DNA of 64,000 nucleotides from Microthyrium microscopicum (Eukaryota): the NCBI GenBank assembly GCA_010405405.1, contig MU004236.1, positions 632,576 through 696,575 on the forward strand. The letters run 5' to 3'. A model generated the notes under the pieces. That model did not search any database. It saw nothing but the letters and a program-made list of their open reading frames with translations, and was not told the origin of the DNA. A program made the translations under genes and the position numbers. Positions 1-7,349 of this stretch are shown here, piece by piece. Position 1 is the first letter of the stretch; the number at the start of each line of letters is the position of its first letter.

Positions 1-1692
1 AATCTACGGCATCAACCTTCCAGGAAAGGATGTAGCAGCTGGAAGCATTGGAATCGACATGGAATACATTCCGTTCAGCGATGCAAAATTCATCATGCTC
101 GAGAAGGATCGTGCAACCAACGAGTGGGTAGCTGAGACTGCCATTGAACTTGTGGACTATAACTTTTCAATGAGCAAAACGGCACCTTTGGGAGAACTAC
201 TTCCAGAATTCGAGAAGAAAGCTCTCAGTATCAAATCCGCCATGTTAAAATCTAAAATGGTTGCCGACAACGAGGCCCTTTTGGTCACACATCAAATAGA
301 CCGAGTTTTGGAGCATTATCGTCAAATGCCCTCCGCCGAAGTTCCTGTGGGATTCTGTCATGGAGATTTAACATTGGCCAATATGCTGATCGATCCTGAG
401 AATCGAGAGTTGTGCGTCTTTGATTTCCTCGACTCCTTTGTGGTAAGTCCGTTGGTGCAACAAATAGTCGCAAACTAATCATTTTAGGAATCGCCGTTAC
501 AAGATATTGCAAAGCTTCTTCAAGATGTTCGTCATCAGTGGTTTCTGACACAAACAACCGTGCCTGAAGATCGTAGACCTCGCATGGTTTCACTGCTCTC
601 CATGTACTACGAAAAGGTCAAAGCCGCATATTGCGACTACGCTCTCTGGGATCTTGTTCCACTTTTTGAGTTTTTCTGTCTTGCACGCATATTGCCTTAT
701 TTCACCGAACTGAAAGAAAAGCATTGTATCCTGAACGGACTGGAGCGCATTTACAACGATCTCTTCGGCGACCTGGATTCGAAACGCGCCAACGAGCTAC
801 TTGAACCCCGTCATGTAGACTTGGAGCGGCCATACTCTCCTCATGATCGTAAAGTCACTGTAATTGTGCCAGCGCTAGGGCCTGCCATGGAAACACAATA
901 CGCATCTGGATCAGTCAAGCTTCTGACGCTTAATGTAGGTCTGCTGTCCATGAAAAGTTGTACATCTCTAACTTCATACAGAGCAACGGGCGCCCAATCA
1001 TTGTCAACAGCATAGCAAGCCTTGATACCACTAATGTATCACGAATCGTGGTTGTGGTATTGAACTCACTGGTAGAGACCAAATGTGGCTCAACAACCGG
1101 TTTTGAGAATCTCTTTGATGGCCTTGAAGCATGCAAAAGAAGTAAGATGGAGTTCATCTATTCTTCAACACAGTCATCCGATGCTTGCGAGTCCGTAACA
1201 TTGGCCATCCATGAGGCCAAGATCACCGGTCCAATCTTTATCAAAGATGCAGACAACGACTTCAAGACTGAGGTCATGGATGGCAACTACGTCAACTTTA
1301 CAAGTGTAGTACGCGAAGATCACCCAGCAAACCCATGGCAACAATCACTACGACCAGACCTCGTGGATGCTATGAAGAAGAGTTACGTTTCATTTGTGTA
1401 TGATAACGTCATCTCCAATGTTGCATACGGATCATTCATCTCCTCCAACTTTTGTTGTGGTGGCTGGAGTTTTCTCAGTGCCGGGCTCTTCTTGGACGCT
1501 GTCAACTCTTTGCGCGATCTGCTTGCTACGTCAGGCTTGGAGCATGGCAGTAAACGAGGTGAGTTGCGCGTTGTTGACGTTCTTTGGCAATTGGTATCTG
1601 AAGGCCATCTGTTCTTTGGAATCAAGGCCGAGGACTATCAGGATTGGGGATCGAATGCAGCGTGGCTTGCTTCCATCAATACTCGGCTTTAA
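1..1692 (+). CDS. Fusion protein, 5' end outside window: APH/choline-kinase-like phosphotransferase domain + nucleotidyltransferase (nucleotide-diphospho-sugar transferase fold)-like domain
   Basis: Exons <1-442, 488-934 and 982-1692 join in frame across GT-AG introns 443-487 and 935-981. Kinase motifs: CHGDLTLANML and DFLDSFV|ESPLQDIAKLLQD. NTase-like motifs: VIVPALG..VKLLTLN|SNGRPII, ESVTLAI..GPIFIKDADNDF, FCCGGWSF, YQDWGS. Confidence 0.8.
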
Positions 1693-2411
1693 GCGAGACA
1701 TTGGCATTATTGGTGCGATCTAGATTTGACATTCAGCATTTTTATAGCTTCGCTCTTTCTCCTTCTGGCTACCTGTGGCGTCTATTGGGACCACAAACAC
1801 GTATGCATTGGATTTAGCTAGGTATTGTAGAATAATATGAACCTTACAGGCCAGCTAATACCATTTGGTGATGACCCATGTATGACAGTATTCCATCGAC
1901 AAAGCAAGTTCTATGCATAGCAATTCCTTGTACTTGCAAATGAAACGATGTAGCAGTATCCAGAAGCCGTTTTGGGCAATTCTTATCTTATATGGATTGC
2001 GCGTTGGCTTCTGGTACTCCATATTTGCCAAGTATCAACACAACTTGCTCATTACTACCACTGGGTTGTCTGAAGTCGTCGTATGGTATACGTACAAGCT
2101 ATAAGGCTGAGCGCCCGTAGCCTATACCCAGAAAGATTTCAAAACCCAGGAAACCAAAACGACCCACGTTGTGCCAGTGTCCACGCTTAAGAAAGAAAAG
2201 AGTGGTACAGTTTGATGTGTGCCTGAATGCAAGGCTGAAAAGTAATGATTACCAAAGCTCCTAAGTTCCCCTAGCGTGGGTGTAACTTTGGGCCACGCAG
2301 CCCCTTGTCTTGTCAAATCTCTCCTTTGAGCCTTTTCACTTGATGGACCCTAACCGTTCTCGACGCCACTGACTTTTTATCTCATTCAGCTCCGGCCGAT
2401 CGAGTGGGATA

Positions 2412-2558
2412 CCGTTTTTACCCTTTCAGTTGGGACATGCTAGCGCGGGTTTTTAGGCGAGGTTTGTCCGTAAGCGATAGCGAGTCACTACCTAAACTCA
2501 GAGCGCCATCCGCAAAAAAAAGCGCGCTAGCATGTCCCAACTGAAAGGGTAAAAACGG
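2412..2558. mobile_element. MITE (Tc1/mariner-type non-autonomous element), 147 bp
   Basis: Perfect 36-bp terminal inverted repeats at 2412-2447 and 2523-2558 (CCGTTTTTACCCTTTCAGTTGGGACATGCTAGCGCG), flanked by TA on both sides (2410-2411, 2559-2560); no coding capacity. Confidence 0.85.
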
Positions 2559-3146
2559 TATGTTCAAGGCACGCGTGTGTGATGCGCATTTCATCATTCG
2601 ATTCATTCCTGCACGCCTTTAGAACTTGATAGACAACAATTCACCGGCCCTACAATTAGAACAAAATGACTAGAGGTTGACACGGCTATCAATCATGTTA
2701 GAACTGCTCAACGCATCTCTCCGAATTGAGCCGCAACTGAAGATTACTTATGGACAAAGCTAAGGAATCAACCCCTGATCACTGCAACACTGCCATTCTG
2801 CCAATCACTTGGCCTCCTTTTCTGCATCGACAGGGGGTTCGAGTAGGTAGTGGATCTAGAGGAGCTTGTGGTTCAAAAGTCTAGAATTGGTGCATGAGCA
2901 TCGTATTCAGACTACCCCGTATACTTGGTAAAGTTCCATGCTGGTCAGGCTGAATGATGAGCATTCCTCTCCCTTCGTGACTTTCCAGCCCACTTCTCCA
3001 ATACATGTCATTCTGAAATCTTTTGTCTTGATTCATACCCCTCGCTTTTGATGTGAGATGTGTGAGTGTGCTTAGCCACATCGATCTTTTCTTAAACTTA
3101 GTTTCTACGTCGCTCTTTCATATCATTTCTTTTAGTTCACAGCAAC

Positions 3147-5602
3147 ATGCTTCGTTTCGCTTCGCCTAAGCAGCTGCTTAGCAGCCTGAGTCCAGCATAT
3201 GCTGCGGCTCTGGCTCTCGTTTGTATACAGGTTGGTATTGGTATCATGTACAAAGCCGCCCAATCTGGGGGAAAGTGAGTAGACACACGACGAACATCGA
3301 TGAGCTCGAACTAACTACCATGGTAGATATCCCTTTTCTGCGACAGCCTCTGTCACCATATCCGAGACCCTCAAATGTTTATTATCAACGTTCCTATTCT
3401 ATCGAGAATGGAAGAATCGCGAAGGAGGAGTCAGATTACCGCAAACACCTATACCTTCACAACCAGTAACACTTAGGGATATGGAGGAAGGAAAGGAGAA
3501 GGATGACGATGACAGCGATACACTTTCGATATCTGACGATGACCCTCTCCACCATATGGAAAAGTCATATCAACACTCGCAAGGAACATATGCTGCTTTT
3601 TTCGAAGCTGTGAAGGAGGAGATTCCACAAGAAATCAAGTTTGGATTTGCTCATCTCGCGCTATTCTACGTCTTGATCAACAACATTGTCTTCGTCCTCT
3701 TCAGACTTGCCGATCCTGGTACAATTCAGCTTATTAAGTCAGGAACGACTCTGATCACAGCCGTGGTTATGATACTCTTTCTTAAGACCAAGATCGGGCG
3801 TGGACAATGGATAGCGATCGTTTTCCAAGTATGCGGTATTGTTGTTACCCAATATACACCATCAGGAAGCGCATTTCCACTCAGCACTTACCTCATACTC
3901 ATCTTTCAGACGACACTCAGCGCTGTGTCCAGTGTCTACAACCAAAAGCTTTGCAAAAGTAGCGATGGATCCCTTCATGTGATGAACATGACTCTTTACA
4001 GCTGCGGAGCAGTTATCAATTTCATTCTTCATATCTTGGTGCGAATCATGAATCGCGACGAACCGGGATTCTTCACTGGATGGGGACATATCGGAGCTCT
4101 GATGGTCATCGTTAGCAATGTCTTCATTGGCCTTGCCATGACCGCCGTATACAAGTGTAAGTCTACTGTAGTCTTGTTAATCAGGAATTCTTACTGACAT
4201 TCGCAGATGCCGATGCTCTCATCAAATGCTTCGCGACGGCCATGTCCACCGCTATTCTTCTTTACCTCTCCCCGTTACTTTTCAACGTCAGCTTCTCCTT
4301 CCTCGTCATTCCCGGTACATTGGTTGTGTTCATGGCCACATGGCTCTATATGGAATCCACACCCAGTAAACCAGCCAACCCGACTCCAGAAATGAAGCCC
4401 GCCTCTATGGAAGCCGAGACCAAGTCCTTCGTCAGCCGCATCCTCTACTCTCTCTCACCCTACGGCCCATTCCGCAAGGCTGGTCTTATGGGATCTACCA
4501 GCATCTGCTTCCTTATCATCGGAATGGTCACCTTCTATCGCACCCACTACATCATCACCGAACCCACAGTCGAAATCGACCTCCCCACCAACATCACCAT
4601 GCCCCCTAGCAACGCCATCTACGACTCGCCCATGAGAAACGTGGCCGGCTTCATCCGCATCAACCACGACCTACCCGAACGCGTCGAGCAACTAACAGCC
4701 GGCTACGAGCCCTTCTTCGACTCCCTACACTTCAGCATGCCAGCCGAAGGCCACGACCGCAACGAAACCAACCTCGAACGTGACTACTGGAACGATTCGT
4801 ACTGGCCCTACCCAGCCATGGTCGACTACCTGCAACTCGTGCTCAACAACGACGCAGAATACGGCCATCTAGAAGGCGTCCTCTTCTTCCACTTTGACGC
4901 GTGGATTGCGCCACTCAGCTTCAACGACATGGACTTTACCAAACTCTGGGTCCTCGACAAATCCACCGGTCCACCCTACATATGCCAGACAGAACTAAAA
5001 CGCATGGCCGACTGGATGTGGTTCGACGCAGGCTGGCAAGAGAAATCCCTCCAAGCAACCCGCATAATCGACCACATGTACTCCGGCTACACCTTCAACC
5101 CCGAAGAATTCTGCGCCGGGTAAGCCCCCTCCCCAACCACCACCTCCATCCCCTTACTGACAACCCATATAGGTGGTCCGACATGTACTACCTCCCGCGC
5201 CGCTTCTTCCAAGACTTCATCAACCTCGGCGGCGTAATGACCTCCGTGCAAGTATTCCACGAAATCGCCGTCCCCACCATCTGGAACATCATCGACAAGA
5301 CCTACTCGCTACACGCCTCGCAGTCCGTCCTACACCGTTGGGGCGACTGCTGGGGCGACTGCTGCGCTGGCTCACCGCTCGTGGAAGATATTGCCGAGCA
5401 CCGGTGCGGACACCATGTGGATTTTTTGAATTGGGAGATTACGAGTACGCACTTTGATAGATTGGAGAGGGATGCGCAGTTGATTGGGACGGAGATTCCG
5501 GTGAGGGAGGTGAGGCAGACGGCGAAGGGCCCGGTGTTTGTGGAGGCGGATAGGGTGGTGGTGAGTGATGCGGAGGTTGTGGCGAGGTTTATGATGATGT
5601 GA
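3147..5602 (+). CDS. SLC35A-like nucleotide-sugar transporter fused to a C-terminal luminal STELLO/DUF288-like putative glycosyltransferase domain
   Basis: Exons 3147-3274, 3327-4156, 4207-5119, 5173-5602 (introns with GTGAGT/GTAAGT/GTAAGC donors). Transporter motifs: KYPFSATASVTISETLK, ADPGTIQLIKS, QWIAI, SVYNQKL, GLAMTAVYKYADALIK. Then an extra TM helix and a domain with EGVLFFHFDAW..DFTKLW, GWSDMYYLPRRFFQDF and FHEIAVPTI. Confidence 0.82.
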
Positions 5603-5946: not shown

Positions 5947-7349
5947 TTACAATTGCTCGTTGACAAAGAGACCAGCCATTCCTTGACCAGTTCCAATGCA
6001 CATGCTAGTCAACAAGATACGCTTCTTCTGTCTCCGGGCCTCACTGAGACCAGTAACGATCTGTCGAGCTCCAGTAGCTCCTAGCGGATGACCAAGAGCA
6101 ATAGCACCACCACGGATGTTCATCTTCGAGTGGTCAATGTTAAGCTTGTTCAAGCAATATACAGCCATTGAGGCAAAGGCCTCGTTAAGCTCGATAATCT
6201 CCATATCATCAATGCTCAAGTTGTATTTTCCAAGCAGCTTTGGGATGGCAATGGATGGACCAATACCCATGATACGTGGCGCCAAACCAGCAATAGTAGC
6301 ACCAACAAACTTGGCCATAATCGGCTGTCCAAGGCTCTCAGCCATGGAACGCTTCATGAGCAGAATAGCAGCCGCACCATCAGTAACCTGCGATGAGTTT
6401 CCACCCGTCGAGCGGTTACCAAACTGTGGGAATGCTGGTCGGATCTTTGACAAACTCTCGAAAGTGGTACCATATCGAGGACCCTCATCCTTAGTCAACG
6501 TAACAGTCTTCTCTTCTCCAGTCTTAGGATCCTTGACAGTCGTGGTAATCGGCACAATCTCATCATCGAACCAGCCGCTCTTTTGCGCCACTTCAGCCCG
6601 GCGGTACGACTCGTTTGCATAACGATCTTGCATCTCACGGGTAATGTTGAAATCGTCGCTGACATTTTCGGAGGTCTGACCCATGGGCTGCATGCAATCA
6701 CACGCTTCCTGGTTCTTGAGGATATCTTCGTGGAATGGTCGTGATAGACGGTCTCCGCTTGTAGACATGCTCTCACAGCCAACGGCAAGACCGCAGTCGA
6801 TGCTGCCCATGGAGATCTGGTTGGCAATGTCCTGGACGGCCTTGAGACCAGAGGAGCAGAAGCGGTTGCAGGAGGAGGCGGCGGTGGTGTTGGGGAAGCC
6901 AGCGGCGAGAGCGGCGGCGCGGACGTAGTAGGCGGCTTTGCCCTCGTTGACCTGATGTTCATGTTAGCGTAGGTTTTTGGTGGTGGGGAAATGGGTAGGT
7001 CATACGTTTCCGAGGCAGATGTCTTCGACGAGTGCTGGGTCCATGTTCATGCGCTGGGTGACTTGTGTGAGGAGCTTGACGACAATTCCGTCAACACCGG
7101 TGTCCTTGAGACCACCCTTTCCACCCTTGGTGAGGGGAGTGCGGATGGCGAGGGTGATGACTACATCATCGGGGTGCTTTGCGGTACTGTATAAGCCATA
7201 AAATTAGCAATCGTACTTTGAATTACCATCTCGTCCACTTCAACTCCTTCTCATCCCCTCACTAGATCTGACAAGTAAACTTACATGGCATCAATTGGCT
7301 TGCCACCGGGCAACAGCTGCTGTGCGAAGCTCTTAAGACGTTCTGCCAT
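5947..7349 (-). CDS. POT1: Peroxisomal 3-ketoacyl-CoA thiolase
   Basis: Three exons (ATG at 7349). N-terminal PTS2 RLKSFAQQL; thiolase motifs RFCSSGL, ELNEAFA, GGAIALGHPLGATG, SMCIGTGQG. Confidence 0.95.

Follow-up and report, generated by a model that had tools for sequence, protein, structure and literature searches.

Can a fungus make an activated sugar and attach it to a secretory glycan with the products of two neighbouring genes? The question is raised by a pair of fusion genes at the start of a 64,000-nucleotide stretch of the dothideomycete Microthyrium microscopicum (assembly GCA_010405405.1, contig MU004236.1, positions 632,576 to 696,575 of the forward strand), referred to here as the window. 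Gene 1 joins a kinase of the APH fold to a nucleotidyltransferase (NTase)-like domain, while gene 2 joins a nucleotide-sugar transporter to a domain that resembles glycosyltransferases. An earlier note on this DNA had placed two adjacent, co-oriented fusion genes on the plus strand, which is borne out: gene models built by hand from splice sites in the sequence, and then matched to database proteins, reproduce the Microthyrium proteins P0024 (gene 1) and P0004 (gene 2) with 100% identity, and thus also identify the window as fungal. The division into four domains was likewise right in outline, with the kinase and the transporter recognised by Pfam (APH and Nuc_sug_transp) and the NTase-like and transferase-like domains supported by the ESM Atlas, structure comparison and, for the former, homology. 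In public databases, the two proteins are called ‘hypothetical protein’ or ‘UDP-galactose transporter’. They represent two uncharacterised fusion families, for which a joint pathway is plausible but unproven.

The best explanation as a whole, which we adopt tentatively and rate a little short of an even chance, is as follows. Gene 1 would encode a cytosolic two-step activation enzyme. Its kinase domain of the APH fold would add a phosphate to a small substrate with a hydroxyl group, most probably to the anomeric or a nearby position of a sugar, and the fused NTase-like domain would then couple the phosphate ester to a nucleoside monophosphate and thereby generate a nucleotide-activated donor. 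As such, it would be the eukaryotic fused form of a module kept in bacterial and phage loci for lipopolysaccharide (LPS) core, capsule and other glycans. Gene 2 would encode a membrane protein of the Golgi or the endoplasmic reticulum, whose SLC35A-type antiporter imports a nucleotide sugar. Its eleventh helix could then tether the GT-A-fold domain on the luminal face, where this domain may transfer the imported donor to a secretory glycan.

A kinase and a nucleotidyltransferase-like domain in one protein

The kinase part of gene 1 is readily identified. P0024 matches the Pfam family APH (PF01636) with 42.6 bits against a cutoff of 23.2, and it carries the motifs CHGDLTLAN, which corresponds to the HxDxxxxN catalytic loop, and FDFLD. 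H321, G322, D323, N328 and D342 are invariant in 16/16 aligned fusion proteins of fungal, bacterial and other origin. The AlphaFold2 (AF2) model reaches a predicted local distance difference test score (pLDDT) of about 70-93 over residues 230-440, and Foldseek searches with this kinase model returned maltokinase 4o7o (E 4e-6), choline kinase, glucosamine kinase, methylthioribose kinase and APH(2''). Judging by motifs and model, gene 1 thus contains an active-looking small-molecule kinase, the substrate of which is not fixed by the fold matches.

The NTase-like part is assigned, more tentatively, through its surroundings in structure and sequence space. In the ESM Atlas, it adjoins clusters bearing NTP_transferase, with feature similarities of 0.96-0.97 and template modelling (TM) scores of 0.74-0.80. 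The neighbouring entries are bacterial and phage proteins of 233-250 amino acids (aa), some with NTP_transferase or NTP_transf_3 and others fused to APH or HAD. Its identity is supported also by homology to bacterial and phage proteins with a classic NTase loop. Weak matches to NTP_transf_3 or IspD occur among the relatives of gene 1, which reach NTase models only below cutoff (E ~1e-5 to 3e-4).

An exhaustive phmmer search with P0024 as query detected 1326 relatives at E<=1e-3, of which 459 reach E<=1e-10. In the 26 of the 150 listed relatives that were covered by a Pfam scan, APH was found in 10, a weak HAD match in 8, a weak NTP_transf_3 match in 3 and nothing in 7. The architectures comprise the kinase alone, the NTase-like domain alone, the latter with HAD, the same combination preceded by an N-terminal part of no recognised family, and the kinase joined to the NTase-like domain. 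To this last group belongs P0060, a 798-aa fusion with a long Asn/Asp run in the kinase N-lobe, a composition that suggests origin from another eukaryotic lineage.

A scan of bacterial and archaeal genomes with one conserved peptide pattern matched 44 stretches, 18 of which were confirmed as relatives, and profiles from the fungal kinase and NTase-like parts were run on all open reading frames (ORFs) of these 18 bacterial loci and of one marine phage locus. In 19/19 loci, a kinase homologue lies upstream of the NTase-like gene on the same strand. Kinase and NTase-like parts are fused in 3 of these loci, abut or overlap in 13, and are separated by 221 nt in one and by about 1 kb in two. As far as sequence comparison goes, they form a conserved module that is new here and, with its 1326 detectable relatives, belongs to no curated family; NCBIfam holds no model for either protein of the bacterial pair. 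Because the order of kinase and NTase-like parts is so strongly conserved, gene 1 may be read as an enzyme that phosphorylates and then nucleotidylates. This sequence of steps had been proposed in the earlier note and is strongly backed by the constant gene order, while nucleotide activation by the fungal protein itself is putative (see below).

The locus context, examined by Pfam for 4 of the 18 bacterial loci, points to surface glycans. In Vibrio fujianensis and Psychromonas marina, the pair resides among genes for heptosyltransferases, a transferase and a kinase for 3-deoxy-D-manno-octulosonic acid (Kdo), WavE and an O-antigen ligase, i.e. in an LPS-core locus. Its neighbours in Segatella copri and in one genome of the Prevotellaceae are GT2, GT4 and acetyltransferase genes of polysaccharide loci. 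A search of phage records with tblastn gave a single match, the marine virus MH319741.1, where a gene for an APH-like kinase (27% identity to P0024, E 8e-18) is located directly upstream of an NTase-HAD gene, whose product shares 29% identity with the chytrid homologue P0031 (E 1e-23). A tblastn search of plasmids yielded five weak matches annotated as ‘NTP transferase domain-containing protein’ or ‘glycosyltransferase family 2 protein’.

Two details of these loci deserve mention. Both gammaproteobacterial LPS-core loci examined harbour a WavE-family gene (PF07507, E ~1e-92) less than 1.5 kb away from the genes for kinase and NTase-HAD (L008 4736..5722 and L004 9049..10113). In the phage, the pair is embedded in a glycan cluster (L001, MH319741.1 14357-26941, reverse complement) with GT11, GT6, a methyltransferase and a mannose-6-phosphate isomerase cupin, as well as two epimerase/dehydratase genes (GDP-mannose dehydratase/epimerase), an extra HAD and a 516-aa protein with a weak NTP_transf_3 match.

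The NTase-like proteins of the 19 loci occur in two forms. Nine loci from Proteobacteria and the phage encode a long form of 353-377 aa, which displays the textbook loop ‘LPVAG[RK]SSRF..PKWLL’ in 8/9 and the HAD motif I DxDG[TV]L in 7/9 cases; this HAD part matches HAD-IIIA, PNKP-like and other HAD models weakly. The remaining ten, from Bacteroidota, Lachnospiraceae and Akkermansia, encode a short or fused form with ‘PxAAD....MP’, devoid of the glycine-arginine loop and of HAD. FIKDxDN, KSY and GG.F are common to all forms, and the D-N-x-F motif is shared.

Salvage enzymes that combine a kinase with a nucleotidyltransferase, either fused or paired, are well known and include AmgK/MurU, LicA/LicC and fucokinase/GDP-fucose pyrophosphorylase. 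Gene 1 resembles these systems in that an APH-fold kinase precedes a putative NTP-transferase-fold domain and in that its bacterial relatives reside in cell-surface glycan loci. Unlike them, the module falls into no Pfam or NCBIfam family beyond the generic APH, the fungal G-loop is devoid of Arg, and the long prokaryotic forms add a HAD domain. The latter architecture is reminiscent of the nucleoside diphosphate (NDP)-heptose route, in which the anomeric kinase HddA, the HAD-IIIA phosphatase GmhB and the nucleotidyltransferase HddC convert a sugar phosphate via the 1,n-bisphosphate and the 1-phosphate into the NDP-sugar. The long phage and proteobacterial forms join the same three activities, with the HAD subtype uncertain, yet the kinase of the module has the APH instead of the GHMP fold and the protein in the window is devoid of HAD. 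Since kinase, phosphatase and NTase are joined as in the NDP-heptose route, this analogy suggests a sugar phosphate as the ancestral substrate of the module.

Traces of the phosphatase persist in some relatives of gene 1. The chytrid protein P0031 as well as P0033 and P0053 possess a C-terminal extension that aligns with HAD, in which DxDG, the nucleophile motif, has degenerated into ‘WIDLERLV’ or ‘WVELEELV’, and these extensions look like the remnant of a three-domain ancestor. Microthyrium P0024 ends before this extension. The earlier note had guessed at a HAD phosphatase in a cluster continuing to the left of position 1, and the association itself was well guessed, in view of the fused HAD of phage and proteobacterial relatives and its remnant in chytrids. 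The predicted location was not: a separate HAD gene on the left was rejected, and instead of a continuing cluster the upstream sequence encodes the N-terminal 201 residues of P0024 itself, most of which are of low confidence in the AF2 model. P0024 has a total length of 733 aa and the gene 1 model matches only residues 202-733, so the gene is cut by the start of the window, in which positions 2..1692 (+) encode its 3' part.

A transporter with a predicted luminal domain

The N-terminal part of gene 2 is a nucleotide-sugar transporter. P0004 matches Nuc_sug_transp (PF04142) with 99.5 bits against a cutoff of 27, as do 20/20 members of its family, and the family profile finds the CMP-sialic acid transporter 6i1r in the PDB (E 5.8e-26). 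Because CMP-sialic acid transporters are the sole solved members, this match places the transporter only in the SLC35A group. Foldseek likewise returned 6oh2 (E 1e-10, TM by target 0.78). The AF2 model of P0004 (mean pLDDT 74.9) consists of ten helices, an eleventh helix and an alpha/beta domain. While the PF04142 domain, the ten helices and the best solved relatives 6i1r and 6oh2 agree with the SLC35A carriers of CMP-sialic acid, UDP-galactose and UDP-N-acetylglucosamine, gene 2 differs from them by an acidic loop of about 50 residues, the eleventh helix and a C-terminal domain of about 330 residues. The loop (residues 78-127, window 3433..3580) is located between helices 2 and 3, modelled with low confidence, poorly conserved and variable in length across 20 homologues.

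In solved SLC35A transporters, both termini are cytosolic. With an extra eleventh helix, the C-terminal domain of P0004 should therefore be luminal, an orientation that is derived by analogy and from the model. A luminal domain is also in keeping with three N-x-S/T sites and with the cysteine motifs DCWGxCC and RCGH, which are conserved. AF2 predicts a confident alpha/beta domain at residues 465-725 (block pLDDT mostly 80-97), for which the Atlas gives a cluster named STELLO2 at 0.97 by features (203 of 256 shared) and a TM of 0.64 by query to plant STELLO2, both reported as similarities free of alignment statistics. Foldseek matches include GT6 enzymes (4cj8, E 5.9e-3; 4ayj, E 1.2e-2; range to 1.8e-2; probability 1.00) and viral GT-A proteins of the Fringe-like, GT14 and GT8 types (E 1.5e-3 to 0.08). 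Across 20 homologues, S460, P461, R470, N472, R478, H494, H548, D550 and W552 are among the invariant residues. We class the domain as STELLO-like with a GT-A fold and keep it apart from STELLO proper.

Gene 2 shares with plant STELLO (DUF288, PF03385) a predicted luminal GT-A-like domain behind a membrane anchor; its anchor, in contrast, is a whole transporter and not a single type II helix, and HxD replaces DxD. The STELLO proteins are type II proteins of the Golgi, in which the luminal domain is related to GT75 and biochemically undefined in its activity; their DxD motifs are needed for function as shown by mutation, and distant fungal relatives are mentioned as well (PMC4906169).

The transporter fusion is conserved in Ascomycota, where both parts are kept in 20 homologues from 11 named species of five classes. 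With respect to base composition, the luminal-domain part of gene 2 stands out (window 4501..5500, GC content 0.55-0.57 and strongly negative GC skew of -0.35 and -0.14). The transporter part is of ordinary composition, and GC amounts to ~0.43-0.50 elsewhere in the first 12 kb, except for 0.55 at 6501-7000 in a thiolase gene.

One pathway or two neighbours

In the explanation that we prefer, gene 2 would import and use the very donor that gene 1 produces. Of all its elements, this shared donor above all is what we infer, and the joint pathway, taken by itself, appears doubtful. Several results weigh against it. The kinase fusion was found in 6 named species and the transporter fusion in 11, with both in just 2, i.e. 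Microthyrium and Trichodelitschia bisporula. A second search with the transferase region retrieved 11 proteins, which added no new named species and included no transporter fusion from Patellaria, Stipitochalara or Irineochytrium, all of which carry the kinase fusion. These fungal searches were word-limited, i.e. they need shared words, and such absences are therefore weak evidence. Of the two fusions, that of the transporter seems to be the more widespread. When all ORFs of the 19 loci were searched with a profile of the transferase-like domain, nothing was found (best E 0.8), so that neither WavE nor any other neighbour is a detectable relative of this domain. To the right of gene 2, the window continues with genes for a thiolase, an SNF2 helicase, Upf2, a mitochondrial carrier and other housekeeping functions; further glycan genes were hence rejected on this side and a rightward extension of a glycan cluster is not indicated.

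It is accordingly a serious possibility, if somewhat under an even chance, that the two genes have nothing in common but their position. In that case, the transporter fusion would import a common donor such as a housekeeping UDP-sugar for its own luminal domain, and the kinase fusion would act in a separate cytosolic salvage or activation route. This would explain why nine of the 11 named species with the transporter fusion showed no kinase fusion, why the Atlas lists a cluster of 56 transporter fusions but no fungal kinase-fusion cluster, and why no transferase-like relative accompanies the module in 19 loci; moreover, the two genes are 1454 bp apart and share no divergent promoter. On the other hand, they are adjacent and co-oriented here, the two proteins of T. 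bisporula are each reported on a 219,148-bp contig, the four functions are complementary, and the species lists stem from the word-limited searches. The self-contained pathway of the earlier note thus retains the adjacency in Microthyrium and the Trichodelitschia contig in its favour but is, with two shared species and bacterial loci devoid of a transferase-like relative, not yet supported.

Further results that speak against our preferred explanation concern the second domain of gene 1. In the fungal protein, this domain has no Pfam, NCBIfam or PDB sequence match (E<=1 for Pfam and NCBIfam), the profiles of the sugar-1-phosphate and MobA-like NTase families (PF00483, PF12804) included, and PDB sequence searches with the window exons and the Vibrio homologues gave nothing useful for the NTase-like or the transferase-like parts. 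AF2 models P0024 poorly (mean pLDDT 54.7, with residues 597-658 and 680-733 below 50); with the NTase-like part, modelled with pLDDT <50 over half of the domain, Foldseek gave weak support for the assignment through a match to 4evw (E 1.3e-3). The loop reads ‘VPALGPAM......VKLL’, in which G479 and K492 are kept and the arginines of the canonical NTP-binding loop (G-x-G-x-R ... K-x-L-L) are gone. The HAD partner present in 7/9 long forms is absent from the Microthyrium protein and degenerate in the chytrid relatives. Since arginines and HAD have both been lost, the nucleotidylation step is uncertain, and the fungal enzyme may have changed its job.

Conceivably, the fungal NTase-like domain is catalytically inactive and serves substrate binding or regulation, which would leave gene 1 as a kinase only. 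The change from ‘AG[RK]SSRF’, present in 8/9 long forms, to ‘PALGPAM’ is in line with this idea, as are the lost or degenerate HAD partner, the failure of any NTase model to recognise the domain and the lack of the loop in the 10 short or fused bacterial forms as well. In Segatella copri (L009 5770..8633), four genes in a row encode an NTP_transferase, a HAD of the beta-phosphoglucomutase family, the APH-like kinase and a short NTase-like protein lacking the G-loop, which suggests that a separate enzyme, located directly upstream, may perform the nucleotidyl transfer in the short subtype. In contrast, K492, G479, ‘FIKDADNDF’, KSY and ‘FCCGGW’ vary little or not at all between the fungal proteins and are in part kept in every form, a constraint that would suit a functional active site. 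All in all, we consider an inactive domain unlikely, although worth keeping in mind.

For gene 2, the transferase assignment is the contested step. Pfam finds no match in the C-terminal domain, the STELLO family (PF03385) was matched by 0/20 members at E<=5, and the best PDB fold match reaches merely E 5.9e-3. Where GT-A enzymes carry DxD at a strand end, H548-F-D550 provides HxD, so that the DxD motif of STELLO is missing at the corresponding strand end, a correspondence drawn independently of an alignment to STELLO. All this again counts against the explanation that we prefer. It would suit a luminal binding or regulatory module which modulates the transporter, particularly as the activity of STELLO, the nearest named family, was never defined biochemically (PMC4906169). 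This alternative is rather improbable, given that the invariant polar residues S460, R470, N472, R478, H494, H548 and D550 would be located where a GT-A fold places the nucleotide-sugar site, and that 4ayj, a metal-independent GT6 enzyme devoid of DxD, is among the best fold matches.

Least probable is a LicA/LicC-like module, which would phosphorylate an alcohol such as choline, ethanolamine or a polyol, convert it into a cytidine diphosphate (CDP)-alcohol and decorate the glycan with a phospho-alcohol instead of a sugar: weak Choline_kinase matches in the fungal protein and its relatives (stronger than APH in P0070), weak matches of relatives to MobA-like NTP_transf_3 and the cytidylyltransferase IspD, and the LPS-core context in bacteria would suit it, but a CDP-alcohol route leaves the HAD phosphatase that is fused in the long forms without a function, the top fold match is the sugar kinase maltokinase, and the luminal domain displays the GT-A and not the LicD-type fold.

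Returning to the activation enzyme and transporter-transferase that we favour, the most far-reaching version is that the pair constitutes a complete eukaryotic pathway of its own, dedicated to a rare surface sugar. A module of the type found in bacterial or phage LPS and capsule loci would make an unusual nucleotide-activated donor in the cytosol, with a ketose such as fructofuranose as a candidate, and a dedicated transporter-transferase would channel it onto a wall or secreted glycan; we deem this version improbable. By pure inference, conversion of fructose-6-phosphate via the 2,6-bisphosphate into activated fructose would fit the logic of the NDP-heptose route. Fructose is a constituent of the LPS core of Vibrio cholerae, so that a ketose can be reconciled with finding the module in LPS-core loci of Vibrio. 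The earlier note had likened the kinase and NTase motifs to those of bacterial capsule proteins such as BcbE/BcbG and KfoD/KfoE, which are associated with fructofuranose branching, a likeness that is conjectural. The descriptions of these proteins in PMC13552107 and PMC8858990 do not touch on domains or folds. Deletion of kfoE removes fructose from the K4 capsule (PMC8858990). A blastn search with the Vibrio gene pair found no match in E. coli genomes, which says little at such distance.

In this far-reaching version, the module would also account for an unassigned step of sugar activation in marine phages and in numerous LPS-core and capsule loci of bacteria. If our explanation holds, assigning its product would fill a gap in surface-glycan biosynthesis that extends across loci of Vibrio, Psychromonas, Segatella/Prevotella, Akkermansia and a marine phage. 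A transporter covalently tethered to a luminal GT-A domain would represent natural substrate channelling across the Golgi membrane and could provide a handle on the biochemically undefined STELLO-like fold. Should the two fungal genes cooperate, they would be the mark of an unknown glycan in Dothideomycetes. Both fusions are variants of known things, i.e. of a salvage kinase with a pyrophosphorylase and of a transporter with a Golgi transferase. In the literature that was covered, open-access text only, neither the two fusions nor the bacterial module were found to be described.

Layout of the locus

The positions of the domains, motifs and introns are compiled in Table 1.

Table 1. Features of gene 1, gene 2 and the region between them, in window coordinates.
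Region	Feature	Position	Strand	Remarks
Gene 1	Exons	2..442, 488..934, 982..1692	+	Splice reading; P0024 residues 202-733
Gene 1	APH-fold kinase domain	2..778	+	P0024 residues 202 to ~445; domain start ~residue 155, left of window
Gene 1	Catalytic HGD (H321, G322, D323)	359..367	+	Plus N328 and Mg-binding Asp D342 in DFLD
Gene 1	Intron in kinase part	443..487	+	Splice reading
Gene 1	NTase-like domain	848..1692	+	P0024 residues ~469-733; stop 1690..1692
Gene 1	Degenerate G-loop ‘VPALGPAM...KLL’	from 866	+	Alignment
Gene 1	Intron in NTase-like part	935..981	+	Splice reading
Gene 1	‘FIKDADNDF’	~1237..1263	+	Alignment
Intergenic	Region between the two co-oriented genes	1693..3146	.	
Gene 2	Exons	3147..3274, 3327..4156, 4207..5119, 5173..5602	+	Splice reading; 766 aa, identical to P0004 over whole length
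Gene 2	SLC35A-type transporter, 10 helices	3147..4358	+	P0004 residues 1 to ~370
Gene 2	Introns in transporter part	3275..3326, 4157..4206	+	Splice reading
Gene 2	Extra 11th transmembrane helix (predicted)	4473..4547	+	P0004 residues 409-433; AF2 block pLDDT 85-90, hydrophobic stretch
Gene 2	GT-A-fold, STELLO-like domain (predicted)	4611..5602	+	P0004 residues ~455-732 and low-confidence tail; stop 5600..5602
Gene 2	‘FFHFDAW’ motif	H548 4890..4892, D550 4896..4898	+	H548, D550 and W552 invariant across homologues
Gene 2	Intron in transferase-like part	5120..5172	+	Splice reading

The intergenic region contains no ORF of at least 80 aa and no Rfam match. It harbours one hairpin-forming inverted repeat with arms of 51 nt (2409..2459 and 2511..2561), which are 92% complementary and 51 nt apart; no further copy of the arm sequence was found in the window, and the repeat (2409..2561) likewise gave no Rfam match. 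On the other side of gene 2, the thiolase gene (Thiolase_N and Thiolase_C, 5947..7046 on the minus strand) converges on its 3' end, with about 345 bp between the two stops.

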